DNA of 64,000 nt from a virus (taxonomy: Duplodnaviria > Heunggongvirae > Uroviricota > Caudoviricetes). The stretch spans positions 48,262-112,261 of the IMG/VR virus record IMGVR_UViG_3300033068_001142, one strand, 5' to 3'. A model generated the notes under the pieces. It searched no databases and had not been told where the DNA came from. It saw only the letters and a list, made by a program, of their open reading frames with translations. Numbering within the stretch: position 1 is the stretch's first letter; every line of letters begins with the position of its first letter. The position numbers were made by a program, and so were the translations under genes. Shown here piece after piece: positions 1 to 26,878 of this stretch.

Positions 1-1851
1 ATCAATTTCTTCTAAGGAGGCGTTAGGAGGAATAGATATCATGGTTGCCCAATCATAACCAATATCAGAAACTGCTTGGTTTTGAGTTACTTGACCTTCC
101 ACAAAAGGTTGTTCCATTATAGGTACTATCATATTATTAACCCACTCTATGTAAGGGGCTTCATCTGTAATTTCAATATATATTGAGTCATAGATTGTAG
201 AGATGATTTTAATATGGTCTTGCAACTTCCATTCGTCTATATGATGATGTAACTCATTGATTGTAAGTAACGTTAGAATAGACCAGAACTGAGAGCAGCT
301 GTTAGTGATTGTTCTAATGTCTTTTGAGGGGTTTGAGGACTTAATATAACAACCCAAACCTATATGAAGCTTTTTATCAGCGATGACAGTAGGCATAACA
401 TAAGACTCTCTAAACCTAGTTACAGAAGGGTATAGTTCATTATGATATCGATTAAATATGGTCTCAGCTTCTTCTAACGTACATTTGATTGAAGAAGCTA
501 CTTTGGCAGGATATGCCCCATACTGAAGTCCAAACGATGGGCCTTTACCTTTCTGTCTAATGGCTTTTAGTTCAGGAGTTTCTTCAAGTTTAGATGCATA
601 TAACTTAGCATCTGTTGATAGGTCTCCTGTAAGTTCAATATACTTGCTGATCTCCTCTCTAAAGTAGTATAAGCTATTAACACAATGCCCGTCTAGGTCG
701 TCTTCATATAACTTAATTAAAGTTTGCTCTTTTGCTAGATTTGCGATCACTCTGTTCTCTAAGGCAGAATAATCTATAGCTAGTATTATCTTACCTTCGG
801 GAGCTTTGAAGCATTTTTTTATTGGTTTTGCAAATTTAGACCCAGTAGAAGGCATATTAAGAAGATTGGGACCAGAACTGGTAAGTCTAAAGGTTTTTGT
901 TCCAAATAATTTTAAATTACCGTAAAGTCTGTCGTTTATAGTATATAGGTAAAAGGCATTAATAAAATTATTTTTGATAATAGACCCTGTTGAATAGTCA
1001 ATTAAGGACTGAAATAAGGAGAGTTCATCATCGGATTTAGCTAAATCTTTGAGAGCTTCTATGTTGTCTCTGTCCCAACTGTACTTGTTTTTGGGTTCAA
1101 TTGGTTCAGGTTTTCCATATTTTATATGAGCGTTTAATGCTCGTTCGTACTTTATGTAGGCATCGGTTAGCTTTTCAGACTCGTACCCAAGCAGGTCTGT
1201 TAGTAGTTCGTGCTTTTGGTCAGGACTTGCTGGATTGAATTGAGGGTACTCAATTGAAGTTAGGTTGTTTATGTTGTCGTAAAATTTACGATTATGTATT
1301 TCAGCTTTGTGTGCTGCATACAGGTTCATGGCTTGAATTGCAAATGTGTTAGTAGGGCTGATGTTACCATTTAGCAGGAGAGAGAGTGCTAAGTGGTCTT
1401 GTGACGGCTTTTTGATTTCTTTTGCAGGCCATTTTGGTATTCCAGTTGGTAGTAACTCGTCTGGGGGTTTGATGTCTTTGTCTTTGATGTAGTGGTGCAT
1501 GAAGTAAGAGCGATGGTCAGGGTTTTTACAGTCGAACGGTTTGAGGAAGTGTTCTGGTGGTTTAATTTTTGCTTGTTGTTCATGCAAGTACGTCTTGGTT
1601 AAATGGTTGTAACGAATTGCTAGGTAGTCTTTAACTATCGGATTTGCAGCTAGGTCAGAGGCTACTTTAGCTAATGTTGTGTCTAGGTTTGCTTCTAGTT
1701 CTTGCACTTTTTGCATGTCAATTGGAAGACCGTTGTGCATTATGCGAACGGTATCTTTGATTAAGTGCTTAGCTACGGTTTCATAGAAGTAGCCGTCAGG
1801 AGGACTGACGGTGCTAGGTTCTGGTGCTGGTAAAAGTTGCCAAGGTCTCAT
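1..1851 (-). CDS. DNA polymerase family A (Pol I-like) polymerase domain; partial, C-terminus lies beyond position 1
   Basis: Absent from the ORF track because it runs off the window. Manual minus-strand translation from ATG at 1851 (ATGA overlap with the upstream stop) is open to position 1. It contains LAIDYSALENRVIANL (motif A), RQKGKGPSFGLQYGAYP (motif B, RxxxKxxxFGxxYG) and IYDSIYIEI (motif C). There is no N-terminal 3'-5' exonuclease domain. Confidence 0.8.
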   Translation of the reverse strand, partial: MRPWQLLPAPEPSTVSPPDGYFYETVAKHLIKDTVRIMHNGLPIDMQKVQELEANLDTTLAKVASDLAANPIVKDYLAIRYNHLTKTYLHEQQAKIKPPEHFLKPFDCKNPDHRSYFMHHYIKDKDIKPPDELLPTGIPKWPAKEIKKPSQDHLALSLLLNGNISPTNTFAIQAMNLYAAHKAEIHNRKFYDNINNLTSIEYPQFNPASPDQKHELLTDLLGYESEKLTDAYIKYERALNAHIKYGKPEPIEPKNKYSWDRDNIEALKDLAKSDDELSLFQSLIDYSTGSIIKNNFINAFYLYTINDRLYGNLKLFGTKTFRLTSSGPNLLNMPSTGSKFAKPIKKCFKAPEGKIILAIDYSALENRVIANLAKEQTLIKLYEDDLDGHCVNSLYYFREEISKYIELTGDLSTDAKLYASKLEETPELKAIRQKGKGPSFGLQYGAYPAKVASSIKCTLEEAETIFNRYHNELYPSVTRFRESYVMPTVIADKKLHIGLGCYIKSSNPSKDIRTITNSCSQFWSILTLLTINELHHHIDEWKLQDHIKIISTIYDSIYIEITDEAPYIEWVNNMIVPIMEQPFVEGQVTQNQAVSDIGYDWATMISIPPNASLEEID

Positions 1852-2054
1852 GGCAGTTTCTTTGGTTTTAAGATGTGGTATTCGTTTAAAAGAGAAAGTG
1901 ATATGGCATGAGTTGGTCTTGACTTTAACCATTCATAGCGGTTAGAAATGTCATTAATAGCTTTGTGGAAGAAGACTTGTTTATTAGGGAGTAACTCGAA
2001 AAGAAGAGTAATACCAGTACGATCTTTTACCTCTCGATGATAGTAGAATTTCAT
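1848..2054 (-). CDS. Small protein of the LLKP-tail family (ends ...HILKPKKLP)
   Basis: 68-aa ORF whose stop overlaps the polymerase ATG. The C-terminal ILKPKK motif is shared with at least 14 other small ORFs in this window. Confidence 0.5.
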   Translation of the reverse strand: MKFYYHREVKDRTGITLLFELLPNKQVFFHKAINDISNRYEWLKSRPTHAISLSLLNEYHILKPKKLP

Positions 2055-2057
2055 TAG

Positions 2058-3146
2058 TTACTCCTTTGGGTTGCCATTGTGGTCGCAGTCTCTTAGCCCT
2101 ATTCCTACTGGTTTTAGTGGGATGCCTTTTTTAGATAAGACTTCGTACTCAATTTTGTAAAACTTGTCTCTGTAATGAGTCTCAAAGTTAGCTAAGATTG
2201 CTTTACGTTCTGAGTCTGTACCTTTTGGTTTGACTTTGAACTCTTGTTGGTCAGGTGTAATGCAAGTGAATACTGGGTGACCGTTTTTGTCGATGGAGTA
2301 GGATGTGATTTCGTATTCAGCGTCGTTAGTTTTTTTGTACTTAAGTACTTCTGATGAACGGTGGTTGAATAGGTATTTGGCGTCTAGGTTGTAAATTACA
2401 GTACCTTCGTAGGATCTTGCCATACAACGGTTGTAGTGGCTTTCAATGTCAGCCTCTGTATCACAAATTACTCCAGTTAGGAAGCAGACTTTGTAATATT
2501 CGTAGGTTGAGAAGATGGAAGACAGTTTCTTGTTACGTTCTTGGTAGGTATCAGCTAAGAACGGTGCTTCGAATATGCAGAACATTAGTTGGTTTGACAG
2601 TTCTTTTGGTTTTTTAACTGCAGAGATGATGTCTTCTAGTGGTGTGTTAGGTATGTAAAGTTCTCCGTTTAAGCAAGTTGTGTTCAGCTTTTTCATTAAG
2701 CTTTTGATCCCATCTTCCAAGTGCGGGATTTGGGGAAATGCGTCTCCACCTCTTGAGGTTAGTGTTAGTGTGTCGTCTTTTAGCCAGTAAGTACCATTTA
2801 CTCCATTAAGCTTTGGAGTGGAGATGCAAGGAAATTTTACTAAGTGTTTATTTTCTTGGTAGGGTTTTACTTTTTGAGGTAGTAAGGTTTCGGTGTCACA
2901 TTCGATTGAGAGGCTGTAACCAGATTTAAGTTTGGCATTCCACTTTGATTGGGCTTCAAGTTCTGCTTGTTGAGCTGGTGTGGTTTCATTGGCTTTGCCA
3001 ATGTTTTTACCGTAGCAAGTTGTATGGTAGGACTGTAGCTTTCCGTTTAGCTGTCCTTGAGTTACTATTATTATGTTGTCAGTTACTGTTACAGAGTATT
3101 GTTGGATTGCTCCTGTTTTAGTTTTTTTGTATAGGGTTGGTGTCAT
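2058..3146 (-). CDS. ATP-dependent nucleic-acid ligase (DNA-ligase-like nucleotidyltransferase)
   Basis: Covalent nucleotidyltransferase motifs: I KLNGVNG (KxDG with N at the D position), III LNGELYIP, IV EGTVIYN, V LKYKK. The likely start is the ATG at 3146, preceded by AGGAG. The track ORF extends to 3200 on upstream in-frame codons that overlap the exonuclease stop. Confidence 0.7.
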   Translation of the reverse strand: MTPTLYKKTKTGAIQQYSVTVTDNIIIVTQGQLNGKLQSYHTTCYGKNIGKANETTPAQQAELEAQSKWNAKLKSGYSLSIECDTETLLPQKVKPYQENKHLVKFPCISTPKLNGVNGTYWLKDDTLTLTSRGGDAFPQIPHLEDGIKSLMKKLNTTCLNGELYIPNTPLEDIISAVKKPKELSNQLMFCIFEAPFLADTYQERNKKLSSIFSTYEYYKVCFLTGVICDTEADIESHYNRCMARSYEGTVIYNLDAKYLFNHRSSEVLKYKKTNDAEYEITSYSIDKNGHPVFTCITPDQQEFKVKPKGTDSERKAILANFETHYRDKFYKIEYEVLSKKGIPLKPVGIGLRDCDHNGNPKE

Positions 3147-3148
3147 GG

Positions 3149-3430
3149 TTACTCCTGTATGTAGTTTTGTAGCTCGTTCCATAAGGCGAAGGTTGCACAT
3201 GCGTCAATCGCTGCGTAGTGTAGGACGTGCTCTTCGTACATTTGAGATTGGTTGAAGTCGTCAGCAGAAACTGCCCAAGCTCCGTACTTGTAGCCCATTA
3301 GGTGTTTAAGACCTACTAGTGATTTTTGGTTATCTACATCGTTTAGTATGGTTTTAGCTAAGATCTGAGAATCTTCGAAGTCTTTTGGGAACTTTTGAGT
3401 ATGGTAGTAGACATGTTTTAGGTCGAAACT
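3149..3430 (-). CDS. DnaQ-like 3'-5' exonuclease, exon 2
   Basis: Manual translation gives SFDLKHVYYHTQKF...VLHYAAIDACATFALWNELQNYIQE*. This continues the Exo II motif (HNA|SFD) across the splice and contains Exo III (H-x-A-x-x-D-A). It has no ATG, so it is not in the ORF track. Confidence 0.75.
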   Translation of the reverse strand, partial: SFDLKHVYYHTQKFPKDFEDSQILAKTILNDVDNQKSLVGLKHLMGYKYGAWAVSADDFNQSQMYEEHVLHYAAIDACATFALWNELQNYIQE

Positions 3431-4495
3431 CGTTTATATTCAACAGAAGTCGTTAATTTCTGCCGGTTCTCAGTAAGTATTTACATGAACTCCTGCATGT
3501 TTCCATGCAGACTAGACTATATCAACATCTCAAAAAGAGATGGAACCTGTTTCCTTCCACTTGGAAGTACGAGCATTTCAGCTCTAGTCGTTGGACATTT
3601 ACAGCATAATTGCTGATTTAGTAACAGATTGCCCTCGTCTTTACGTTAGGGGTTTCCTGTTTTAAGGTTCTTTAGACATGAAATCGCTTTCATGAATGCC
3701 TATACTTGATAAAAATTTAACAGTTGTTTTATTAGTTGGAAATACTATTTCAGAATCGGATAGTAAGTTATTATTAGAATGTGGCCAATTCATTAATTTT
3801 ACAAAAGAGTCGTAAGCCTTTGCTGCTTCTATTGCTGATTTAAATGATCCTATTCCGTAATGTTTATGCTCGTAATTTATATGAGCTACCCATAGTGTAT
3901 CATGTATTTTAATTATACCTTTATAACCGGTAGTATTAGTTTTTTTGATTGTACGTTGATTTACTATTTGTATAGAATAATTAACCCATCTACAGTTAGA
4001 TGGTTCATAGTTACCGTCGTTATCTTTACGGTCTATAGTAAGTCCCTCTTGATACCCGTTAGAGATAGCCCAATCATAAAAAGCGTCAAATGAGTTTATC
4101 CATTCTTCACACATAGTGATATTTTTACTAAGGTATGATACTGATCTAGAATCTGTACATTTTAACTTAGTTTTAGTATCTGCCCAAATTCTATAAAGTT
4201 TATGGTTTCTGTTTGGTTTTTTATTTGATGTTCCGTTACATCCTTTACAAAATAATTGATTTTGTGATTTAGTTGTAACTACTGCATCAAAGTGGGATAA
4301 ACAGTTTGTACATTCGAATGTTGCCATTCTTACTTTTTTGTAATAATTTTCCGTTGGTTTTTTCATTCCAAGATCTTTTATGACTTTCATTTTGAAAGTG
4401 TATTCTGTTAAAGGTTTTAGTGCTGCCATAATAATGCTCCTTATATGTTTTAATAAGTATAGCATAATTATGCCAAAATGTCAAGTATTTAGTTA
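3431..4495 (-). ncRNA. Group I intron (IA, T4-like core) interrupting the exonuclease gene; carries an HNH endonuclease ORF
   Basis: Exon 1 ends GCU, followed by an in-frame UAA. The 3' part carries Q-like AAAUCAGCAAUU, R GUCCAACGACUAGAG, S UGAUAUAGUCUAGUCUG and AAUUAACGACU 17 nt before the terminal G. Splicing restores the Exo II motif ...VWHNA|SFDLKH. Confidence 0.75.
3662..4465 (-). CDS. Intron-encoded HNH homing endonuclease
   Basis: 267 aa with an HNH_3-type motif ...DRKDNDGNYEPSNCRWVN... It lies entirely inside intron 1 on the same strand. Confidence 0.75.
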   Translation of the reverse strand: MLYLLKHIRSIIMAALKPLTEYTFKMKVIKDLGMKKPTENYYKKVRMATFECTNCLSHFDAVVTTKSQNQLFCKGCNGTSNKKPNRNHKLYRIWADTKTKLKCTDSRSVSYLSKNITMCEEWINSFDAFYDWAISNGYQEGLTIDRKDNDGNYEPSNCRWVNYSIQIVNQRTIKKTNTTGYKGIIKIHDTLWVAHINYEHKHYGIGSFKSAIEAAKAYDSFVKLMNWPHSNNNLLSDSEIVFPTNKTTVKFLSSIGIHESDFMSKEP

Positions 4496-4882
4496 AGCGT
4501 TGTGCCAGACTTGTTTTATTGGTGTTGTAACTAGCCAGTTTAAGGTGATGTCTCGCATACGTGTGTCTGTGAAAATGATTACGTATGCAGTTGTTTCTGA
4601 TGTTGCTATGGAGCAGTGTGTCATCCTAACGAGTGATGGATGTGAAATACCAGAAGATAGAATGGCTTGGTTTGTTTTATGGTAAGCTAATGAGTTGGGT
4701 GGTAGAGCTGCAAGTTTTAGTTTTAGTCGTTCTTTTTCCTCGTCAGTGTACTTGGATGCAGTTTCAAAGTCACAAGCGATTATTGGGTAGGTTTTTGCAA
4801 TGTCTTGTAGCGTTTGAAGGAGTAGTAATTGGTTAGTTATTACAGTGTAAGTTACTGTTGTTGAGGTAGTCAATGTTTCCAA
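4496..4882 (-). CDS. DnaQ-like 3'-5' exonuclease, exon 1
   Basis: Exo I motif IIACDFETAS. The exon ends ...IKQVWHNA, the first half of the Exo II H-N-A-x-F-D motif, and is immediately followed by a stop inside the intron. The start is an apparent TTG with an AAGGA RBS. Confidence 0.75.
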
Positions 4883-5108
4883 GTTCTGTCCTTAATTGTA
4901 TTTTTGGTTCAACGTAGCGGTATTCTAGTTGTACAGCGTTTAGTAATACTTTGTGAGCTCTTGTACAAGCGACATAGTAAAGATTTAGTTCAGTTTGTTC
5001 TTCCTTTGTTAGTTGGTCGTATGTGATGTTTTTAGAAGCCATAGAGATTTGTACCATTTTTACGGCATTGTTTAAGTCATCAGCAATGTAAACCTCGTCA
5101 TACTCAAG
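4833..5108 (-). CDS. SF1 (UvrD/Dda-like) DNA helicase, exon 2
   Basis: It begins LEYDEVYIADD... immediately after motif V and contains YVACTRAHKVL, the SF1 motif VI. The junction ...TAHSTKG|LEYDEVYI matches the UvrD pattern TLHSAKGLEF. Confidence 0.75.
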   Translation of the reverse strand, partial: LEYDEVYIADDLNNAVKMVQISMASKNITYDQLTKEEQTELNLYYVACTRAHKVLLNAVQLEYRYVEPKIQLRTELGNIDYLNNSNLHCNN

Positions 5109-5389
5109 CATTATGTTCCGTATAAGGCGTTAATTTATACGTGCAGCATTACCTGCAACTATACATTACTGTATAGATCAGACTATATCTTCATCCCAGT
5201 AGGATGCTCCCCGTTTCCACCCACTTGGGTGTACGTGCAAAAGCACTAGTCGTTGAACGTTCCTCGTTATGAGGCTTCGCTGCTGATTGTCCTAGGAGTA
5301 GGATGTCCCAGCAATTAGAGGAGTTTTGATACACATTACTGTGTAAAAGGGCCTATGTAGTTTTATTATGAGTCACTCAACTTAAATTA
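5109..5389 (-). ncRNA. ORF-less group I intron (281 nt) in the helicase gene
   Basis: Exon 1 ends GGU, followed by UAA. Core elements read on the minus strand: P UAAUUGCUGGGACA, Q CAAUCAGCAGCG, R GUUCAACGACUAGUG, S GAAGAUAUAGUCUGA, and AAUUAACGCCU 16 nt before the terminal G. Confidence 0.8.
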
Positions 5390-6625
5390 ACCCTTAGTTG
5401 AGTGAGCTGTTCCTAAATGGAAAGAGCTTGTTAGTCTTTCGTGTTTTTTTGCTTCTTCGTAACAACTAAGTACTCCAGTAACTCTGTATTTTAGAATTAG
5501 ACTGATTGCTGTTGATACTTGCTGGTCTTCTTTATAGAGGTCTTTTAAGTAGTTTAAGTGGTTTCTGTACTTTAAAATTAGTTCTCTATCTTCGTAGTAG
5601 TCGTTGATGTCTTGTTGAATGCTTTTGAATTCAACTGGCATGAAGCCTTTGTTTTTAGAAAGACAAAGTGCTTTCGGTAATGAGAAGATATCATCAGCTG
5701 AACGAGTTAAGGTGTACGGGACTTTTAGTTCGTTTAGTTCCATCATTTTAGAGATTAGTGTTGTGTTTGTTCTTGCAATGAAGGCTTGGGTTTTTGGTTT
5801 GTCTGGTGACTGTTCAGTTCCGTTGAATACCATTTTAGGATCTATGTAAGTTTTACAGTAGCTGTTGACTCTTTCTGCAATTTGAGGTGAAACTCTAAAT
5901 GACTTTGACATTGGGAATTCTACACCAGTTGATTTCATTACGTTGAAGCAGTTAATGGTGTGGTTAAAGCTGTAAATGTTTTGACGAGAATCTCCGACTA
6001 AGAGTTTCTTGGCAGAAGGGATTAGTTTAAAGATTTCTAGTGTTACTGGGTTGATGTCACCAGCTTCGTCAAGAGCAATGAAGTCAAATGGTTGGTAAGA
6101 GATGTGGTCGGTAGCTAAGAGTATATGGAAGTATTTTAGGTAAAATTCGTGAGTACATTCGATGTCACCACTTTCCATTTGATGGATATAGGATTCTAGT
6201 AGTAATAGTTCTTTTTCTGTTATGGGTACTTTTTCTTCTTTGCAGAAGTCTGAGAAATGTAAGTGTTTAGATAGAAAGTACTCTTTTAAGTAGTCTACGA
6301 GTTCACAACGTCTTTCGTATGGAATGTCTTGGTTGATGTTACGGTAATTGAATTTGCCGAGTGTTAAGTGGTTTTTTACTACCGTTGGTCTGTAAGCTAA
6401 TGAATGTACGGTACAGCAAGTTACTGTTTTGGGGAACTTGGATGCAGCTTCGGTTGCAATGCTTTTATTATAAGCTAAGTAAAGAGCGTTAGTAGGGTTA
6501 AGTGCTTTTGCTATTGATACTAAGAGCGCTGTTTTTCCTGCCCCTGCTACGGCATTTACTTTTACGTAGCCATCATTAGATTTTACATGATTTAGTATTT
6601 GGTGTTGTTCGTCTGTTAATTTCAA
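5390..6625 (-). CDS. SF1 (UvrD/Dda-like) DNA helicase, exon 1
   Basis: Walker A AVAGAGKTALL, motif Ia TVHS, motif II ALDEAGD, motif III LLVGDSRQ, motif V TAHSTKG at the extreme end of the ORF. Confidence 0.75.
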
Positions 6626-6760
6626 TAAAAATCCTTAGTGAAGATATTAAAGGTATTAATACCTTTGTAAAGATTTATAGTAGCTAGGAGAGAGATTAGC
6701 TACTATAAAGTTGAAGGGGAGTTAAAAATACGGACTTATACCTGAAGGATGCCGTGAGTG

Positions 6761-7492
6761 TTACTTTCTAAATAAGCTGCCTGCAGGTTTTACTTGTGAC
6801 GCTGGAGCTGTTGATTTAGTAGCTGTAGCATCGTTTGATTTAGCCTTTTTCCAAGCTTCTACATCTTCAGCTGTTAAGTCGTCTAAGTAACGAACAGCAT
6901 CTGCGTAACTTGCTTTGTCTTTTTCAAGTTGAACACCAACTTCAGAGTTGTTAACGATTTCTCTAACAGATGCACCGTCTTCTGCTCTATAAAATGCTAC
7001 TGGTACCATTGATTTTCTGATTTCTTTAGTTGTAGCGTTGATTGAGTATTCTTCTTGTAATCTGATTTTGATTGGTAAGTCTGTGAATTGAGTTATGATG
7101 TTGAACTCTTTTGCTTTTGCTTCTTTACCAACTTTGAATGTTTCTTGTTCTACTTCTAATTCGTCATTGTCACCTAAACCTGCAATAACTCCTAATGAGT
7201 TGATTAATTGCATACCAATTTTTAATGGTTCGTTTTTTGTTGATGTGATGTATGGTCCGTAGATTGTTTGAGCATTACCGTTATACTCGATGTTAAAGTT
7301 AACAGATTGAGCTCCGTTTTTAGATACTTCTACCGAAGCGAATTTGATGATTACGTCATAGATACCAGACTTGCTGATGTATGATGAACCTCCGCTTGAT
7401 TGAATAGCGTCTGAGTTAGTTGAGATTTTAAATAATTTCATTGTGGTCCTTTTTGAGTTGAGATGTATGCAAAATATTGCATAAGAGAGCAC
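6761..7492 (-). CDS. Hypothetical protein (possible ssDNA-binding or annealing accessory protein by position)
   Basis: 243-aa ORF between the helicase and a RecA-like ATPase. No motif was recognised. The real start is probably the internal MKLFKIS. Confidence 0.3.
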   Translation of the reverse strand: MLSYAIFCIHLNSKRTTMKLFKISTNSDAIQSSGGSSYISKSGIYDVIIKFASVEVSKNGAQSVNFNIEYNGNAQTIYGPYITSTKNEPLKIGMQLINSLGVIAGLGDNDELEVEQETFKVGKEAKAKEFNIITQFTDLPIKIRLQEEYSINATTKEIRKSMVPVAFYRAEDGASVREIVNNSEVGVQLEKDKASYADAVRYLDDLTAEDVEAWKKAKSNDATATKSTAPASQVKPAGSLFRK

Positions 7493-7519
7493 TAGGAGAG
7501 GTAGTGCTCTATATGAATA

Positions 7520-8194
7520 TTAAAGAAGGAATTCTTCGAATTCTACAGCTTTTGCTGATAATTGGTCTAAGTGATCTTGAAGAGAGTAGTCTTCAATGTT
7601 TACCGAATCAGGCACGTCTGCTAACGTTGTTCTTGATGGATACTTTAATCCTTTTAAGTGGACTACTAGTTTACTAGATTTAACCTCGATAAAGGCAGCA
7701 TCGTTAACAACAGAAGTCCATGAGCCCGCTTTTGCAAATGCTCCAGTAGCTGGAATAATGTGTCTTGCAGTAGCTTCGTCATATAAAGTGTGGGCAACAA
7801 TAACTACATTGATACCTGCTGGTATAAGCTGTTGTTCAATGAATTGATTGAATGCCATTGTTTCTTGATTGTTTTTGGTGTGGACGTCAAAACCTTTGTA
7901 TTTATCCGAGTTGTACTTTTGCATAGCAGAGTACATTTGAGTAACTGTGTCAAATACAACTGTTTCTGGGTAGTGTCCAAATTTGTCGTGGTATGCTTGA
8001 AGCTTACCTGTAAATTGTTCTAATAGTTTGTCCATACCTTCGTACTCTTTTATGTTAACATGAGGTACTTTAAAACCGTATTCTTTTTGGTCTAAGTTAA
8101 AAATTAGGGGGTTCCTTAGTGCTGAAGTTAGGGTTGATTTTCCTGACTTTTCAAAAGCACATAATAGAAATTTAACTCCTGATTTTGCTGACAT
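7520..8194 (-). CDS. RecA-fold P-loop ATPase (Sak4-like)
   Basis: Walker A FEKSGKST near the N-terminus and a Walker B-like VVFDTV. Size and context resemble phage Sak4-type ATPases. Confidence 0.5.
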   Translation of the reverse strand: MSAKSGVKFLLCAFEKSGKSTLTSALRNPLIFNLDQKEYGFKVPHVNIKEYEGMDKLLEQFTGKLQAYHDKFGHYPETVVFDTVTQMYSAMQKYNSDKYKGFDVHTKNNQETMAFNQFIEQQLIPAGINVVIVAHTLYDEATARHIIPATGAFAKAGSWTSVVNDAAFIEVKSSKLVVHLKGLKYPSRTTLADVPDSVNIEDYSLQDHLDQLSAKAVEFEEFLL

Positions 8195-8255
8195 TATGAC
8201 TCCTTATGGTGATATTTGATTAAGACTATTGAAGGGAAAGGCGTTATACAAGTCT

Positions 8256-8537
8256 TCAGTTTAACGCCCTGGGTTTTAGGAGTTTAATGTTTGGTAATTG
8301 GGTTATTGTAAATCTTTTTCCAATAAGGAAATGGTTCCAAAATCCTTGTATGTGTTCAGCGTAATTATCCGGGGATTTAATTATGTATCCTTGTATTTCA
8401 TCACGATCAGGACGTGCAGGTTCACTGTGTGTAGGATCATATAAAAACGTGTAGTTGTCTAGTCTTAGTTGAAGACCTTGTTTAGCTAAGGTTAAGAATT
8501 CGTCTTTAGTAAAAGTTTTTCTTTGGTTTAGTTGCAT
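8256..8537 (-). CDS. LLKP-tail family small protein (N-domain: KDEFLTLAKQGL type)
   Basis: 93 aa, ends ...QLPNIKLLKPRALN. The N-terminus is paralogous to 8528..8815, 8806..9093 and 26582..26878. Confidence 0.5.
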   Translation of the reverse strand: MQLNQRKTFTKDEFLTLAKQGLQLRLDNYTFLYDPTHSEPARPDRDEIQGYIIKSPDNYAEHIQGFWNHFLIGKRFTITQLPNIKLLKPRALN

Positions 8538-8815
8538 TTACGTGTCCTTAAAAGTTTAAGTTTTGGTAGGGTTACAATAGTAAAGGTGTTAACACTGTCA
8601 AAGAAGTACCAACAAGAGTTAATTGGTACTTCAAGTTCAATGTCTAATAGTTGTATTGTTTGTAAGTATCCTTGGATTGATCCAGTCCTGCTGAAGTTTT
8701 TGTCAGAGTTTTGCTTGTAGTAGTACTTAGAACCTGTTCGTGAGACTACTAGTCCAGCTTTTGCTAGTAGTAGGAACTTTTGTTTTGATAGTGTAATTAC
8801 GTCTCCTACTTGCAT
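8528..8815 (-). CDS. LLKP-tail family small protein
   Basis: 95 aa, MQVGDVITLSKQKFLLLAKAGL..., ends ...LPKLKLLRTRKCN. Confidence 0.5.
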   Translation of the reverse strand: MQVGDVITLSKQKFLLLAKAGLVVSRTGSKYYYKQNSDKNFSRTGSIQGYLQTIQLLDIELEVPINSCWYFFDSVNTFTIVTLPKLKLLRTRKCN

Positions 8816-9093
8816 GTTTTTGCCTTTAGTAGGAAGATGTTTGCAGGTCTTACTACTACAAGTGTTTCGCTAGTAAGAATGCTCCAAAGCCCGTAAATGT
8901 GTTCTACTGGTTTTAGGTCAGATTCTCCGTAGCAGTAGTTCTGTACACCGCCGTAACTAGATTCTGCTTGGATGTGAAACGGTGCGTAGAAAAAGTAAGT
9001 ATCTTGGTCTTTAACTTTTACTGCTAGGCCTTGTTTGGCTAGTCTAATAAATTGCTCTTTTGTTAGTTTAAGCTCGGTTCCGACTGGGTACAT
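8806..9093 (-). CDS. LLKP-tail family small protein
   Basis: 95 aa, ...LKLTKEQFIRLAKQGL..., ends ...ANIFLLKAKTCK. Confidence 0.5.
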   Translation of the reverse strand: MYPVGTELKLTKEQFIRLAKQGLAVKVKDQDTYFFYAPFHIQAESSYGGVQNYCYGESDLKPVEHIYGLWSILTSETLVVVRPANIFLLKAKTCK

Positions 9094-9461
9094 TGCTTGC
9101 TCCTTAGTGGTTTTAAGTAAAGTGGTGTAACTACTATGTAGGTGTTGATATCGTCTAAGACTCTTAGGTCGTAGTTAGATAAGGCAGAAGTTTTGTCACT
9201 ATATGACCAAGAGTACTTCATACGTAGTCCTGGGATTGGTCCTGGGTACTTGTATTTAATAGCTTTTGGATTAAATGAGTATTGAATTGAATTTAACTGT
9301 AGTTTAGCACCTGCTTTTAGGTATTTTAGCATTAGTTCAAAGTTACAAGTTACTGTTGAATTTTGTTTATGTATTGACATGTCTAGCCTTTTGAAGTTGT
9401 GGTCTTTTAAGTTGTTTAACAATGAATGTGTTCTTTGGTCTAAGGAAGTAGTCCCAAACAC
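9063..9461 (-). CDS. LLKP-tail family small protein (divergent)
   Basis: 132 aa, ends ...TPLYLKPLRSKQCTQSEPSLN. It is part of a tandem array with overlapping start and stop codons. Confidence 0.4.
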   Translation of the reverse strand: MFGTTSLDQRTHSLLNNLKDHNFKRLDMSIHKQNSTVTCNFELMLKYLKAGAKLQLNSIQYSFNPKAIKYKYPGPIPGLRMKYSWSYSDKTSALSNYDLRVLDDINTYIVVTPLYLKPLRSKQCTQSEPSLN

Positions 9462-9684
9462 CGCTCATCACTTCAACTCTAGGTATATGTCTGTTAGTAT
9501 TGATGCTTACAATTACTTTATCTATATTGAAACCCTCTGCGTCTAAGTACGAGAATTTATCCTTGTAGTAGAATATAAGAGCACTAGAGTCAGGAATCAT
9601 TAGTATTAGTCCTTTTGGTGCTAAGGTTCTGAATACTTCTTCTGTAAGCTTTTGTACTGGGTATTGTTTTTCTACAGTGAACAT
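9367..9684 (-). CDS. LLKP-tail family small protein (divergent)
   Basis: 105 aa, ...LTEEVFRTLAPKGL..., ends ...IVKQLKRPQLQKARHVNT. Confidence 0.4.
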   Translation of the reverse strand: MFTVEKQYPVQKLTEEVFRTLAPKGLILMIPDSSALIFYYKDKFSYLDAEGFNIDKVIVSINTNRHIPRVEVMSGVWDYFLRPKNTFIVKQLKRPQLQKARHVNT

Positions 9685-18600: not shown

Positions 18601-19274
18601 AGTCCAAAGGCAGTGTTTATTTCCAAGATGTAAAGGTTTTGGTCTTCATCTTCGATTATGTCTACGGCACCATAAGTTAGGTTTAACGCTGTTAAGGATT
18701 TAGTAGCTAAGTCTGGTAGAATTACTGGGAATTCAATGTCGTTTCTAGCGAATATGTAACCGTTAGCACAGTTCCAGATGTATGGTGATCTTTCACCTTC
18801 GAAGTCACGTTTTTTAAGTTTCTTTTTCATGTCTACAACACGGTTGTTGACTACAATTGCACGGTACTCATGTTTTTTCTCAATGAACTTAGTGTATAGT
18901 GGTGCGTTTGGTAGCTCAGATGGCTTACCAACTACGATACCTTCACCTGAGTGACCTGTTACTGTTGTACGAGCTAAGTAGGTTGTTTCTTCTTCAAGTT
19001 CGGTTTTGCTGAAATAGAAGTCTGGTGTAGGAAGCTCAGCTGCTTTTAGTTTTGTAAAGGTTGTGATTTTGTTAGCTGCATCTTTTACTGATTGAAGTGG
19101 GTTAAGGTAACGAGAGTTGTGGACTACGTTAACGTTACCCCAGTTTATGATAGTGTCTGTTGGTTTACCTCTAAATTTGCTGTGTCTGTGTTGGATACGT
19201 TTGATGTTTAGGTAATCAGCTAAGGCTTTTGCAGAGTTTGAAGGTTTGTAAGACTGAACTCTTAAACGTCTCAT
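18549..19274 (-). CDS. ATP-grasp family ligase (RimK/glutathione-synthetase-like)
   Basis: ...GEGIVVGKP..., ...YGAVDIIEDEDQNLYILEINTAFGL..., the C-terminal ATP-grasp signature. The 5' 50 nt of the track ORF overlap 18298..18600, so the real start is probably an internal Met. Confidence 0.6.
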   Translation of the reverse strand: MRRLRVQSYKPSNSAKALADYLNIKRIQHRHSKFRGKPTDTIINWGNVNVVHNSRYLNPLQSVKDAANKITTFTKLKAAELPTPDFYFSKTELEEETTYLARTTVTGHSGEGIVVGKPSELPNAPLYTKFIEKKHEYRAIVVNNRVVDMKKKLKKRDFEGERSPYIWNCANGYIFARNDIEFPVILPDLATKSLTALNLTYGAVDIIEDEDQNLYILEINTAFGLCGTTTQLVGDAIKELL

Positions 19275-20683
19275 CTATAAACCTTGATTTCTGCAATTTC
19301 TGAAGTGTTGATTGTGTAGTTTCCAGAACCTCCAGAAGATCTAACACCTCTAAAGTCTAAGCAAGTTGCACTTTTTTGGAAACTGAAGTGAGATGTGTCG
19401 CCTTGTACTGTAAACGAAAGTCCGTCTTTTAGTACTATTTGTAAAATGTTTGGTAAGTCTTTAACTGTTAGTTTAGAGAACGGTAAAGTTATCTCTTTTG
19501 GTTCTTTGTAGACTACTACGTTTTGGATGTCTTGTTTGAATTCAGTTACTGCTGTATTTAGCTGAGGGTAAGTTGTGATGTGTTTTGCAACGTACTTGAA
19601 GTAGTCTTTTAATGTAACTCTTTTAGCTGCTGGTCTTGTGTATTCAATTAATGAGTCTAAGAATTGGATATAAGTTTTTAAGCTGTTTAAGTCTGTTGTA
19701 GAGTTGAAGATTCTAACTTCGATTGTTGCTTCGTTACCTTCGTTGATTACATTGTATCTGTCCATTGAGATTGGTGCGTTATCTTTAGAGAACACTTTAC
19801 CAATTGGTCTGAATGGGCAATAGTTGTTTAATTTTCTTGTTGCTATGTGCTCTAACAAGTCTTGTGATGAGTATAGCAAGAAGTAGAACATTGCGTAGTG
19901 TTTTTTGTCTTTGAATGCCGTTCTACTGATGTGTACGTGACATCCGTTTGACTCAGACGTTTCAACTGATGTAGTTGCAACTGTGTTTAAGAATGACTTT
20001 TCAGCCATTAACTCTTCGAATGTGTGAGGGTGTGATACTACCTCAGCTCTAAATTGACCACCAGATATTGATGAGTCTGCTTTTAAGTAAACTTCACGTG
20101 AATGTTTTGCCATTACTTTTAGCGCTTCTTTTTTAGAGTTGAATCCGTATTCTAGTTCAATGCCGTAGAACTTTTTGTTAGGTGATTCACCTATAAATGA
20201 AGGAGTTGGTTTGTAACTGTGAGGGTTAACTTTCACTAAGTCTTCTTGACATGAGTCACATAAGTGGAATTCATTTGGAGTATCAATGCTAGCTCCACAG
20301 TTTACACATGAATGGTCGTTTAAGATCATTGTGTTAGTTGTAATGTTAAAGAACATGTTTGGAGTTGTTGTTTTAATGTTTTCAGACTGTAAGAATGGTT
20401 TAGTGTGGTTAAACTCGTAAACAGTGCTATTAATGTTTATACCTTTTATCCAAGATTCGTGGATTGGGTATTCTACGTTTTGGTGTTTAACAAAAATTTC
20501 AACACAGAATGCGTCTTCATTTTTCTTGAAAGTTGTTAATTCTAACTCTCTTGGTGCTGTATCTAAAGCTGAGTCATAAATAACGTAATCTTTACCTTTA
20601 AAGGTTTGTTCTGTTTCAAAGTCGTAAACTTCTTCTAATGTTTGATTAATTTTAGTTTTACTTTTTAATATTAGTTTTATCAT
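19271..20683 (-). CDS. Zn-ribbon + glutamine-synthetase-fold carboxylate-amine ligase (GCS2/YbdK-like amidoligase)
   Basis: N-terminal CVNCGASIDTPNEFHLCDSCQ. The C-terminal half has FYGIELEYGF (GxExE strand) and NGCHVHISR (G-x-H-V-H), as in YbdK/GCS2-type amidoligases. Confidence 0.5.
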   Translation of the reverse strand: MIKLILKSKTKINQTLEEVYDFETEQTFKGKDYVIYDSALDTAPRELELTTFKKNEDAFCVEIFVKHQNVEYPIHESWIKGININSTVYEFNHTKPFLQSENIKTTTPNMFFNITTNTMILNDHSCVNCGASIDTPNEFHLCDSCQEDLVKVNPHSYKPTPSFIGESPNKKFYGIELEYGFNSKKEALKVMAKHSREVYLKADSSISGGQFRAEVVSHPHTFEELMAEKSFLNTVATTSVETSESNGCHVHISRTAFKDKKHYAMFYFLLYSSQDLLEHIATRKLNNYCPFRPIGKVFSKDNAPISMDRYNVINEGNEATIEVRIFNSTTDLNSLKTYIQFLDSLIEYTRPAAKRVTLKDYFKYVAKHITTYPQLNTAVTEFKQDIQNVVVYKEPKEITLPFSKLTVKDLPNILQIVLKDGLSFTVQGDTSHFSFQKSATCLDFRGVRSSGGSGNYTINTSEIAEIKVYR

Positions 20684-20990: not shown

Positions 20991-22308
20991 CTGGTATGTA
21001 TATGCACATTGTTACTTAGGTATTTTTCCGTTAAGTACGTCCTCAATAAAAAGCTCTGTCGATTCTTTAGTTGAAGTTCTTAATTCTTTATAGTCTAAAA
21101 GAATGCTTTGTTCTAATAGGTATGCATTATAAAGTGTAGTTTCAAAAGTATCAATTATGCTAATGTCACATTTGAACTTAGACTTTAATGCATTTATGCG
21201 TTGTTTTAAATTTATAGTTATTCCAATTTTGAAGTATTGCCCTATTTGTAAATAATATAGGATAGCGGGTTTGTTTTTAAGATCATCACTTCTACTAAAT
21301 ATTGTCTCACAATACCCACCTGGTAGTTTGCCTTCTAGACATAGTGCATCTATTGTACATTTAGGACAACCTTGTCCAGCTATGTGTTTTTGGGCTGATT
21401 TTTTAAATTCTCCATGCACTTCACAGTAACAAGTAATGATTGACTTTTTGTTTATGTAATTACTACATTCGTAAGTATACTTACCGTTATATAAGTTTGT
21501 GGCATAATCAATAAATTCCTTAAACGTATGTGTTTTGATATTGGCTGATGATGCTATACCACATTTAGGACAACCTTTTGTCACATTTTTGCTTAATAGT
21601 GTATGCGGAGATGTTGAGTGTTCCCCATGTACTGGACATACTAAAGTTACTTTAGAATTTATACCAGTATAGTTATCTACTTTGAACTCAAAATTAGAAA
21701 ATTTATGTAAAAGTTTACTTTCTATTTCTTCCCATGTGTATTTTAATGGTTTAAATCCTGTCCGTCCTTTAGATTTTTGAGATCTCCTTAAAATTGCACA
21801 CTCCGGACATCCGTATATAGATGTTAAGTGTTTATCGGGGTTTTGTTCAAATTCACCATGGGTAGGACAAGTAATTATTGATTTTGTTTTAGCATTAGTG
21901 TATATAAACTTACTATAATCATACTTGCCATTATACTTTTTATTTGCTTTTTCTATAAATTTTTCTTTGTTTGTCATATTGTATCTCCTATCACTTATTG
22001 ATAAGTATACAATCTTTGTACTTAATAAATACTTAAGTAACAATGTGGACTATATCATCACCCTATAAAATAGGGGCTCACTGCTTCGACCCTGACAGGG
22101 GCCTACTCTCTTTCGAGATAGTCTCTGAACCTTCTCCTATACGGAGCTTGGCTGCGGATTGACCAATATTATAGATTTTTACTGTACTGTAGATAGTTAC
22201 TCTACACCCTATGCTATATTTCTATGTATAGTTAGTACTATAATATTAACGGAAGTTCCCGCAATTCAATGAGTTTTCGATATGGATTACTCCATAAAGG
22301 GGCCATTA
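20991..22308 (-). ncRNA. Group I intron in the NAMPT gene, carrying a Zn-ribbon/T5orf172 (GIY-YIG superfamily) endonuclease-like ORF
   Basis: Exon 1 ends UUU, followed by UAAUGG. Core elements: P CAUUGAAUUGCGGGAAC, Q GGUCAAUCCGCAGCC, R AGGUUCAGAGACUAUCUCGAAAG, S GAUGAUAUAGUCC, all 5' of the ORF. The NAMPT ORF stops in the middle of the conserved GSGG region. Confidence 0.7.
21012..22043 (-). CDS. Intron-encoded endonuclease-like protein: 3x Zn-ribbon repeats + C-terminal T5orf172 domain
   Basis: Three repeats of CPxHGE(F/H)x(13-16)GCPxC. The C-terminus ...ILYYLQIGQYFKIGITINLKQRINALKS matches the T5orf172/GIY-YIG-like motif. The probable true start is the internal ATG (MTNKEKF), preceded by AGGAGA. 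Confidence 0.6.
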   Translation of the reverse strand: MLLKYLLSTKIVYLSISDRRYNMTNKEKFIEKANKKYNGKYDYSKFIYTNAKTKSIITCPTHGEFEQNPDKHLTSIYGCPECAILRRSQKSKGRTGFKPLKYTWEEIESKLLHKFSNFEFKVDNYTGINSKVTLVCPVHGEHSTSPHTLLSKNVTKGCPKCGIASSANIKTHTFKEFIDYATNLYNGKYTYECSNYINKKSIITCYCEVHGEFKKSAQKHIAGQGCPKCTIDALCLEGKLPGGYCETIFSRSDDLKNKPAILYYLQIGQYFKIGITINLKQRINALKSKFKCDISIIDTFETTLYNAYLLEQSILLDYKELRTSTKESTELFIEDVLNGKIPK

Positions 22309-23727
22309 AAATGTTAACCCAATGCCTAATACTATGTTATCAGAAGCAAACTTTTTGTCTGCTAATTTTTTAAGGATAGTGTCTTGTCTTTCTAATGTGA
22401 TTGAGTCTCCGTAGATTAAGCCTACGTATGGTGATAAAGTTTTGTAACCTTTATCGTTTGTAGTGCCTCCAAATACGTCCCAAAGACACTTGATTGCCCC
22501 TTTAATTTGAGCTTCTGAAAGTAACTCAAAAGTATCCTCATTAATAACTTTGAAGCAGCCTTCTTTACAAGAGATGTAGAAGCTGCCCATATAAGTATGT
22601 TCTGCTGCTTCCTCTAATGTTAAAGTTGGAAACGATTGGTTTATTTTAACGCCGCAAATAACATCTACTGGATTACCTGAGTCAGGTCTAAAGACTACTT
22701 TAGCTAATCCTAGAGCATTTGGTTGACGAGATTCAATGATTGGTTTAAGTACTTTTATACCATATTCCATCATATACCAGAAGTCGAATGAGTCAGCAAC
22801 TATTGAGATAATTCCAGTTGGGTATAACTCTGTTATTAAGTACCAAATGTAAGCAATTTCTGCTAGTCTTTGAGTGTTTATGTGTGTACTGTCATATTGA
22901 AGCATGTCAATTGATAGGATTTTGTTAGCAGGAGTTACCCATTTACCAGTAATATCTAGTGATTGTTGAATGTTAGCAATGTTAGTACACATTACACTAT
23001 GTTCAGTTGCTGGAACAGATGTTCCTACTAATGACTTAGTGTAATCAGCAAAATAGTAGTCTTTTGCTCCTTGGATTGCTAAACAGGTGTCAGTTCCTAC
23101 AAAAGAGAATAGGTGTGATATTTGGTTTTTGTAGGCATCTTCCCTGTTTGATAGTCCTCTAGCAGAGAAATCATGTCCTTGAAATATTACAAATCCTTTG
23201 TCTGCACCAGTTAATTCTGCGTAGTGTTCAAAAGTTTTTCGGTATTCGTAAGCTATAGTAGCGTTTGTTGACATTTTCCATAACTCTGATGACATTACAG
23301 TTTCGATGTAGTTAACTAACCAACTAAATTTTGGGTGCGTATTTACTATAGTTAGTACTGGTATCTTAGCTGGAACTAGTGTGCCTTCTGGTAAAGATTT
23401 GATTTGTAATGGTAGGTATCCTAAGTCATGTAGTTCTTCTACGTGGTCAACTGGTATTGAATCTGGTCCAAGTGTTGAATCCATGAATAGTTTATACGAT
23501 TCTACTACTTCTTTTTTAGGTTTGTTAAAGAATCCTTCATTCCATTCTTTAATTAAGTAGTCCATGATGAAGGCTTGTAACCCTACCCATACAAGCTTAT
23601 CTGATGAGCCTTTATATCTTTTGAAAGATCTTGGTGTAAAGTTAGAGTAGACTAATGTAGTGTTTTGAGGGTACTGTCTTCTATGGTCAGCTTTATAGAA
23701 GTCTATAGCTAATAGTGGGTTAAGCAT
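22309..23727 (-). CDS. nadV: Nicotinamide phosphoribosyltransferase (NAMPT/NadV), exon 1
   Basis: MLNPLLAIDFYKADHRRQYP... is the characteristic NAMPT N-terminus. The ORF ends ...NIVLGIGLTF, truncated at the conserved GSGG block. Confidence 0.75.
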
Positions 23728-25659: not shown

Positions 25660-26592
25660 TTACTCTAATATGTAGGATATACTAGTAAAACCTTCTTCCA
25701 GTACTGGTATTACAAAGGATTTTGACATTTGGTGTAGAAGTTCTGGTTGTACAGTTTTATCTTGTCTTGTTTTGTTGCATTCTAGCACTTTTGAGTATTG
25801 TGGTAAGAATACAATGGCTTTGAATTGGGCATGGTTGAAACGAGACATCATTGACCTTCTTGATTTTAGTGATAGCATTGTCATGTCAATTACTAGGTCG
25901 GATTGGGTTTTAGCTAGTTTAGTGATTAAGTGGTCAAAGTCTCTGTTAAAAAGTTTTAGTGTTGTAGGATTACTGTGGACTAAGGTGTAAGCTTCGTTGT
26001 AGCTAAGGTTTGGGTACTTGTCTGTTAGTAGGTTGTCCCTAGAAATAATGTCTGTGTTTAGGGTTTTAGCGTAAGTTGATTTTCTAGTACATGGGAGACC
26101 AACTAGTAGAGTTACTGTATGTGTTGGGTTTGATGTAGGTGTTGTGAACTTACGAGGTTCGTAGTCTTTACGTGGGTCTTTGTCAGTGATTCTTCCGTAA
26201 GAGTCTGCTTTTCTGAACATTGACAAGTATGGAACTGTTAGTTGAGCTATGTTTACTCCGTGTAGGGAGATTACTCTTAGTATGTCGATTTTTTCTTGTT
26301 CTGTTAAGTCGAAGATTGGAAGAATGTCTGTTGCTAACATTGTTGATACTCCTTCGTGTGATTTGAAAGAGGTCCTACCGTCAATAATTTCAGCTGTGTA
26401 ACACTTTCCAATGTCGTGTAGTAAGGCTGAAATTAGCAGTACTTTGTTGTTAGGATGAAGTGCTAAGACATGTGAGTAAACCATGCAAGTATGTGTCCAA
26501 ACTGAGCCTTCTAGGTGGTAAGAAGAGTCGTGGTAAGTTGATTGCATAAGTTTAACAAGTTCTGGGTAGTGGTGCATGAATTTAGTTATCAT
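25660..26592 (-). CDS. HD-domain phosphohydrolase fused to a P-loop kinase-like domain
   Basis: N-terminal H...LLHDIGK (HD motif). C-terminal VTLLVGLPCTRKSTYAK (Walker A). The architecture resembles nucleotide/polynucleotide kinase-phosphatase enzymes. It may function in the NAD-salvage block. Confidence 0.45.
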   Translation of the reverse strand: MITKFMHHYPELVKLMQSTYHDSSYHLEGSVWTHTCMVYSHVLALHPNNKVLLISALLHDIGKCYTAEIIDGRTSFKSHEGVSTMLATDILPIFDLTEQEKIDILRVISLHGVNIAQLTVPYLSMFRKADSYGRITDKDPRKDYEPRKFTTPTSNPTHTVTLLVGLPCTRKSTYAKTLNTDIISRDNLLTDKYPNLSYNEAYTLVHSNPTTLKLFNRDFDHLITKLAKTQSDLVIDMTMLSLKSRRSMMSRFNHAQFKAIVFLPQYSKVLECNKTRQDKTVQPELLHQMSKSFVIPVLEEGFTSISYILE

Positions 26593-26878
26593 TGGTTGCC
26601 TTTCTAGTTTTAAGTAACTTTCCAGTTTTTGGTAGTTCTATTACTGTAAATGTTCCTGGGAATCTATACCAAAAACCCATGATTGGGGCTTGTGGTTCTG
26701 ATGTTGAATAGCCATATACGTAACCTGGAATTTTCTTAGGGTTTGAGGTTTCTGCAAATCTTTCTATTGATTTAGGGGAGTAGAAAAAATACAGATGGTT
26801 AGAAGAAACTACTAGCCCTTGCTTAGCTTTTACTAAGAATTCTTCTTTAGTTAGTGTGATCACATCACCTACTTTCAT
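26582..26878 (-). CDS. LLKP-tail family small protein
   Basis: 98 aa, MKVGDVITLTKEEFLVKAKQGL..., ends ...ELPKTGKLLKTRKATNDN. Confidence 0.5.
   Translation of the reverse strand: MKVGDVITLTKEEFLVKAKQGLVVSSNHLYFFYSPKSIERFAETSNPKKIPGYVYGYSTSEPQAPIMGFWYRFPGTFTVIELPKTGKLLKTRKATNDN

Follow-up and report, generated by a model that had tools for sequence, protein, structure and literature searches.

How does a phage proofread its DNA when its family A DNA polymerase (PolA) carries no exonuclease domain? This question is raised by the replication module of a marine phage, encoded in a 64,000-nucleotide (nt) stretch of IMG/VR record IMGVR_UViG_3300033068_001142 (record positions 48,262-112,261), which we call the window. 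PolA enzymes are textbook single-chain proteins with exonuclease (exo) and polymerase (pol) domains, and here the two are encoded by separate genes with a ligase gene and a small open reading frame (ORF) between them, as an original prediction made from the sequence alone had noted. Our analysis indicates that the locus very probably specifies a two-gene family A replicase of an AD45-like, N4-related phage, in which proofreading would be supplied in trans. The system is known here from sequence and models, and all coordinates are window positions.

Gene structure of the split polymerase

The minus strand is the coding strand of every gene in 1..9000, and the predicted arrangement of exo, ligase, small ORF and pol was confirmed on it. 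The transcription order is helicase, exo, ligase, an ORF of 68 amino acids (aa) and pol, with the following features:

6625..5390 (exon 1), 5389..5109 (intron) and 5108..4833 (exon 2), minus strand: UvrD-like helicase (PF00580; exon 2 from its reading frame)
4882..4496, minus strand: exonuclease exon 1, residues 1-129 (ORF list and translation)
4495..3431, minus strand: group I intron in exo, 1065 nt (Rfam RF00028, 78 bits)
3662..4429, minus strand: intron-encoded HNH-AP2 homing endonuclease ORF (phrog_374, E 1.9e-39, and a weak AP2 match)
3430..3149, minus strand: exonuclease exon 2, residues 130-222 and stop codon (translation of the spliced gene)
3146..2058, minus strand: ATP-dependent DNA ligase, 362 aa (PF01068, E 4e-9; phrog_114, E 6.6e-58)
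2054..1848, minus strand: 68-aa ORF, no assigned family (intact in the relative L003)
1851..1, minus strand: family A DNA polymerase, polymerase-only (PF00476; phrog_23226), running off the window

Joining the two exo exons gives a 222-aa DEDDy protein with a PF01612 match, so that the intron-split DEDD exonuclease gene proposed at 4882..3149 stands. The protein aligns with positions 4-216 of the 223 of phrog_25155 (E 2.4e-47), and its start codon is a TTG preceded by AAGGA. Exon 1 holds Exo I (D38-F-E40) and the first half of Exo II, ending ...W-H-N-A with a stop codon directly after; exon 2 starts S-F-D-L and holds D132 of Exo II together with Exo III (Y201-A-A-I-D205). The residues D38, E40, D132, Y201 and D205 are invariant in 119/119 standalone exo homologues. 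The intron separates A129 from S130 within the Exo II motif (HNA/SFD, the slash marking the splice site). Exon 1 ends on U and the intron on G (junction GCU/UAA ... ACG/AGU), and removal of the intron restores the reading frame. The junction is proven to the base by L003, a 52.6-kilobase (kb) contig from Logan SRR12487023, which is an independent assembly 95-98% identical to the window and has no intron in exo. Its positions 1..613 align to window 5108..4496 and its positions 614..4043 to 3430..1, exactly contiguous, and the 222-aa exo that it encodes (P0001) is 99% identical to the spliced exo of the window.

The pol gene has 617 codons within the window, and a 96%-identical relative (P0121) is 626 aa long; therefore just 9 codons and the stop codon should lie beyond the window, which accounts for the rest of the gene. 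Its product matches the polymerase-only family phrog_23226 (E 1.6e-183, covering positions 12-602 of 611), and PF00476 is its sole Pfam domain. Motif A (D360 and E365), motif B (R432, K436, F440 and Y444) and motif C (Y554-D555-S556) are all present. D360, R432, K436 and D555 are shared by all sequences in an alignment of 137 relatives, and E365, F440 and Y444 are each shared by no fewer than 132. Motif C (window 186-194) reads YDS, not the canonical HDE, and YDS is nearly invariant in the clade. Because N4-like outgroups read HDA at this motif, the absence of the Glu characterises the lineage and does not indicate an inactive enzyme, and the second acidic residue of motif C appears to be dispensable throughout this PolA branch.

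The original prediction was also right that this polymerase is without Exo I-III. No Exo motifs are present in the pol sequence, and its AlphaFold2 model (predicted local distance difference test, pLDDT, 91.1), of which about 412 columns superpose on the polymerase domain of KlenTaq or Bst, contains no DEDD beta-sheet. A degenerate exonuclease fold hidden in the N-terminus was considered and ruled out, residues 1-302 being all-helical in the model. The protein was however said to begin directly with the palm and fingers, and this needs correction: about 300 helical residues, comprising the thumb and an N-terminal extension, precede motif A. Sequence searches found no close solved structure for either pol or exo.

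The split is the norm in the AD45-like lineage

The phage had been placed in the T7 supergroup, but its portal, pol and exo are closest to AD45 and N4-like phages. The best portal match, at 63.5% identity, is to the Alteromonas phages vB_AmaP_AD45-P1 to P4, followed by PT11-V19/R22Y and then by N4-like Vibrio phages; PT11-V19 and R22Y are placed in Schitoviridae in the R22Y paper (PMC11705849). Identity to AD45 is 46% for pol and 41% for exo, and the next pol matches below the Alteromonas phages have 25-29% identity and come mostly from N4-like phages. In addition, an N4-type primase (phrog_2135) and a single-subunit RNA polymerase are encoded in the window. By these matches the phage classifies as an AD45-like, N4-related podovirus and not as a member of the T7 supergroup. 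Protein searches were needed for such comparisons because megablast of positions 1-6000 against 50,697 phage records found no close genome, the sole match being 50 nt of intron core in Staphylococcus phages.

A scan of IMG/VR gave 80 related loci, to which 4 further loci were added, and 74 of these were assessable. Exo and pol are separate genes at 70 of the 74 and fused at the other 4 (L004, L026, L074 and L080). The split had been described as uncommon, yet in the lineage to which this phage actually belongs separate genes are the norm. The possibility that relatives encode a fused enzyme, raised at the same time, holds for a minority (these 4 loci and 12 protein clusters), most relatives being split. 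Exo lies upstream of pol on the same strand at every locus where exo was found. In the split loci the gap between the exo stop and the pol start ranges from -13 nt to 5.8 kb, being -13 to 60 nt at 27 loci, 150-500 nt at 20, 500-1500 nt at another 20 and more than 3 kb at 3. Database searches returned more than 100 standalone exonucleases of about 220 aa and more than 100 polymerases of about 600-650 aa.

What lies between the two genes varies. Only in the window and L003 is the ligase gene found between exo and pol; elsewhere it is downstream of pol (L045 and L059). In PT11-V19 five small ORFs separate exo from pol. AD45-P1 has the helicase, then the 223-aa gp071 ('hypothetical protein') and then the 611-aa DNA polymerase gp070, with gp071 and gp070 overlapping by 20 nt in different frames, and the helicase-exo-pol order of the window is seen both in AD45-P1 and at many metagenomic loci. 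Out-of-frame overlaps of exo and pol by 7-20 nt occur in AD45-P1 and others. At five loci (L008, L015, L068, L069 and L071) exo and pol are in the same frame, with a single stop codon and 19-52 nt between them, and stop-codon readthrough could yield a fused protein there.

Homology to fused enzymes and evidence for a probable partnership

Exo and pol match neighbouring parts of a single fused-polymerase profile, phrog_17, at positions 666-829 and 845-1245, respectively. Fused proteins also exist within the clade, where they form 12 protein clusters (P0139, P0182, P0241-P0246, P0248, P0253, P0255 and P0263). One of them, P0139, has 868 aa and shares 45% identity with exo and 52% with pol, and its linker of about 45 aa runs into the invariant N-terminal peptide of pol, LLP.P.P....PP.G.FY. 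The AlphaFold2 model of P0139 has a pLDDT of 93.4 and a predicted template modelling score (pTM) of 0.87. Superposed whole on the Bst large fragment or the Klenow fragment, it reaches target-normalised template modelling (TM) scores of 0.77-0.84, compared with 0.48-0.56 for the pol-only model. Because the whole model superposes as one rigid body, the exo domain of P0139 is predicted to pack canonically. The divergence of exo also follows that of pol, the two distance matrices being correlated over 63 loci (Mantel r 0.90, with 0/999 permutations as high). A group of proteins of about 530 aa (P0256-P0262) was considered as an alternative split point and rejected: P0261, the member examined, is the product of exon 1 of a fused gene that an intron interrupts (L087), and the others were assumed to be alike.

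A two-subunit replicase is the best explanation of these observations, because the fused relatives fold in a Klenow-like manner and the catalytic residues of both halves are conserved. The 626-aa subunit would be a complete polymerase domain (thumb, palm and fingers) with a helical N-terminal extension, and the separate 222-aa DEDDy subunit would provide the 3'-5' proofreading active site. Both genes would derive, by an old fission, from a single exo-pol fusion gene of the N4-like type, after which gene order would have drifted apart; in this phage a ligase gene and the 68-aa ORF lie between them. The exo mRNA would first have to lose the mobile group I intron from inside its Exo II motif. The spliced exo would then, most likely, dock non-covalently on pol in the geometry of the Klenow exo domain, and once docked it would edit misincorporated 3' ends in trans.

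Evolutionary history of the split

The direction of change was examined in a neighbour-joining tree of the polymerase domain, rooted on the N4-like phages Presley and EcP1. The fused proteins P0263, P0253 and P0248 form the deepest ingroup branches, followed by PT11-V19 and a large split crown, within which fused forms recur at about six scattered places. This rooting points to an ancestor with a fused gene. The most parsimonious reading would be a single old fission with occasional re-fusions, and we infer this history tentatively. Re-fusion would be easy at loci where the genes abut.

Alternative explanations

Several considerations weigh against the two-subunit replicase or limit what its evidence can bear. 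Where genes overlap at metagenomic loci, some of the fused or split calls could stem from assembly errors of a single base. Co-divergence of exo and pol is expected of any two genes that are vertically co-inherited, and it excludes swapping only. The docking geometry comes from a fused homologue that is about 50% identical, not from the window's own pair of proteins. The polymerase domains of PolA enzymes are generally considered to depend on the exo domain to remain stable (PMC10201439). An enzyme whose two parts stayed apart should then be unstable, which argues for an association of exo and pol but falls short of demonstrating it. The neighbour-joining tree was built without support values, which keeps the scheme of one fission and later re-fusions tentative.

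Could the 222-aa DEDDy protein instead be an independent nuclease, RNase D/WRN-like or engaged in host-DNA degradation, recombination or repair, with a polymerase that works without proofreading? The separation of the genes, by 1.3 kb here and by up to 5.8 kb in relatives, would suit such a role. So would the annotations of gp071 as a 'hypothetical protein' and of phrog_25155 as 'unknown function', and in sequence searches exo has just one solved-structure match, which is weak, to a 'diDNase' (E 0.0019). Nevertheless we consider an independent nuclease unlikely. The two proteins align to neighbouring segments of the same fused-polymerase profile, fused exo-pol proteins recur in the clade and model as canonical Klenow-like two-domain enzymes, and at essentially every locus long enough for a judgement exo is found with pol, upstream of it and on its strand.

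It is very improbable that exo and pol are joined after all, whether by recoding, an unrecognised intron, trans-splicing or a split intein, so that the split would exist at the DNA level only. Self-splicing elements are certainly abundant, with two group I introns here and up to two in the pol gene of L073, and frameshifting or readthrough is conceivable where the genes overlap out of frame or, as at the five loci named above, a single in-frame stop separates them. However, the 1.3 kb between exo and pol in the window is filled continuously by a complete conserved ligase gene and a conserved small ORF. Both are kept in L003, where the gene order (exo, ligase, small ORF, pol) is the same and all ORFs are intact, the 68-aa ORF among them although 24 of its 207 nt differ. 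No Rfam RNA family matches between 1851 and 3149. There is also no room for a split intein, because exo and pol end and begin where the profiles of their standalone families do (at 216/223 for exo and 12/611 for pol), without intein-sized extensions. An exon or frameshift joining the two genes had been named as the finding that would overturn the split, and no such element was found.

The interrupted exo gene with its TTG start could also be taken for a decaying or artefactual locus, that is, a pseudogenised polymerase broken by insertions or assembly errors. But the Logan SRR12487023 assembly, 95-98% identical, keeps the gene order and has intact ORFs, 70 related loci are split likewise, the catalytic residues of both proteins are conserved or invariant across homologues, and both AlphaFold2 models are confident. 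Decay or artefact is effectively refuted by these conservation data.

The 68-aa ORF and the organization of the module

The 68-aa ORF has no Pfam or PHROG match. The original prediction had assigned it to an 'LLKP family', a label that we had to drop: BLASTP finds nothing similar to it among the small ORFs of the window, including the paralogues of about 95 aa at 8256..9684 and 26582..26878. The latter are a family in their own right on the minus strand, with a tandem run of about five genes at 8256-9684 and a distant copy at 26582-26878. They are 30-44% identical to one another, have C-termini such as KLLKPR or FLLKAK, and are presumably the 'LLKP family' that was meant. Pfam and PHROG searches revealed no uracil-DNA glycosylase (UDG) domain in exo, in pol or in the ORFs between them.

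The genes of the module are tightly packed on one strand. The ligase start comes 2 nt after the exo stop codon, and the ATG of pol overlaps the stop of the 68-aa ORF (ATGA). Because of this packing, the 2-nt gap and the overlap, the helicase, exo, ligase, small ORF and pol genes are probably co-transcribed and partly translationally coupled. No convincing minus-strand terminator was seen between exo and pol in a promoter and terminator scan. Further into the window, the minus strand of the early region carries auxiliary metabolic genes (22306-23727 and 19271-20683) for a nicotinamide phosphoribosyltransferase (phrog_448, E 2e-151) and an amidoligase-like protein.

Group I introns and the homing endonuclease

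Group I introns with HNH homing endonucleases are known from phage replication genes, as in T4 td/nrdB and the polymerase introns of SPO1 and Twort/K. The intron in exo resembles these in having an HNH ORF, in being inserted into a catalytic motif and in its presence/absence polymorphism; it differs in its host gene, which here is a free-standing proofreading exonuclease and not a polymerase. Its core matches Rfam RF00028 at 3721..3493, well above the gathering score (78 bits vs 50). The intron is present in the window and absent from L003, and is thus polymorphic between genomes that are 95-98% identical. A group I intron occupies the same exo site (A129/S130) in the distant relative L009 (5036-5266), whose pol is 48% identical. 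This polymorphism and the shared site in L009 are indirect evidence for the predicted self-splicing and homing activity of the exo intron. A one-base shift of the exo frame occurs in L007 (8635-9232) near residues 129-138, the site of the intron in the window and L009, and may reflect either an error in sequencing or a scar from the activity of an intron or endonuclease.

The longest ORF of the endonuclease starts at 4465, and its likely start is the ATG at 4429 behind AAGGAG (4442..4437). The strongest sigma70-like site in 1-7600 (TTGACA-17-TATACT at 4484..4456, 11/12 positions plus TG) falls in the exo intron, and the other sigma70-like counts of the promoter scan were at chance level. As judged from these signals, the homing endonuclease may be transcribed from a promoter of its own and begin 12 codons after the start of the longest ORF. 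The stretch of about 50 nt in the exo intron core that megablast had detected (3615-3667) is 90% identical to Twort/K-like phages of Staphylococcus, in several of which the match is annotated within the terminase large subunit gene; it is probably a group I intron core element shared by very distant phages.

Rfam finds two group I introns only in the whole 64-kb window, the second being in the helicase gene. That intron is 281 nt long, without an ORF, and matches RF00028 with 98.3 bits at 5398..5159; it splits the conserved TxHxxKG/xE motif. L003 starts precisely where helicase exon 2 does (window 5108), which suggests that the end of this contig is an assembly break at a presence/absence polymorphism of the helicase intron. 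Introns were also seen in relatives: L073 has two in pol (5383-6109), and L084 carries a group I intron at 2669-2934. In L087 a group I intron (2587-2833) lies in a fused exo-pol gene and is accompanied by DUF723 and HNH ORFs. The replication module is an intron hot spot in these phages.

Relation to known split polymerases

The closest known arrangement is that of the AD45 phages themselves. In the original AD45 description (Garcia-Heredia et al. 2013, PMC3821669), a 672-nt 'exonuclease' ORF is listed beside a 1851-nt DNA polymerase ORF without comment. As in the window, an exo of about 223 aa lies directly downstream of a UvrD-like helicase and is paired with a 611-aa polymerase-only PolA (phrog_25155 and phrog_23226). 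The AD45 genes have no intron and overlap by 20 nt, whereas in the window a ligase gene and the 68-aa ORF lie between exo and pol, and exo carries an intron. None of the literature that we searched treats the split as a trait common to the whole lineage of AD45-like or N4-related phages.

Genetic separation of exo and pol was called a first in 2023 by Czernecki et al. (Nucleic Acids Research, PMC10201439), who described it in cluster #5, the small group of S-SBP1-like T7-like cyanophages. The split there is due to a 1-nt frameshift with the genes still abutting, and the AlphaFold2 model of the exo-pol complex equals the fused Syn5 enzyme; the complex was predicted to be preserved (PMC10201439). 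The two cases are alike in that a family A polymerase has been fissioned into exo and pol and that uninterrupted close homologues exist. They differ in depth and layout. The S-SBP1-like fission is recent and belongs to a T7-like subfamily, whereas the lineage of the window is split deeply and clade-wide with fused forms in the minority. Other genes often lie between exo and pol in this lineage, and the two are 1.3 kb apart in the window with a ligase gene and a small ORF between them, in contrast to the abutting cyanophage genes.

The N4-like PolA enzymes (cluster #17; e.g., Presley and EcP1) combine UDG, exo and pol domains in one chain of about 800-900 aa (PMC10201439). Like the window enzyme they have no Glu after the Asp of motif C (HDA there, YDS here), and they share Phe at the motif B position equivalent to Klenow F762. 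The window enzyme differs in having no UDG domain and in its separate exo and pol proteins.

A bolder form of the two-subunit proposal, which we regard as rather unlikely, would take the fission to be independent of that in cyanophages and much older. The enzyme would then be a true two-subunit replicase analogous to the alpha-epsilon pair of Pol III, with an exo gene that is independently placed and expressed and is gated by intron splicing. The phage could then adjust the ratio of exo to pol, and hence its replication fidelity, and occasional re-fusions would be evidence that the split can be reversed and is subject to selection. As it stands, the locus is an AD45-type two-gene PolA that falls within the split PolAs already published and is an ordinary representative of its lineage. 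Its local distinguishing features are the ligase gene between the two halves and the mobile intron in the active-site motif of exo. Nothing at the locus contradicts current understanding.

Taken across the lineage, the picture is worth noting for polymerase specialists and annotators. A widespread marine phage lineage, with about 70 split relatives, runs on a two-gene PolA whose genes are free to separate. For annotation, phrog_25155 and AD45 gp071 should be called the proofreading subunit. The split also bears on polA-based surveys of virioplankton, which assume a single gene, and the lineage is a natural setting in which to study the mutual recognition of exo and pol domains.

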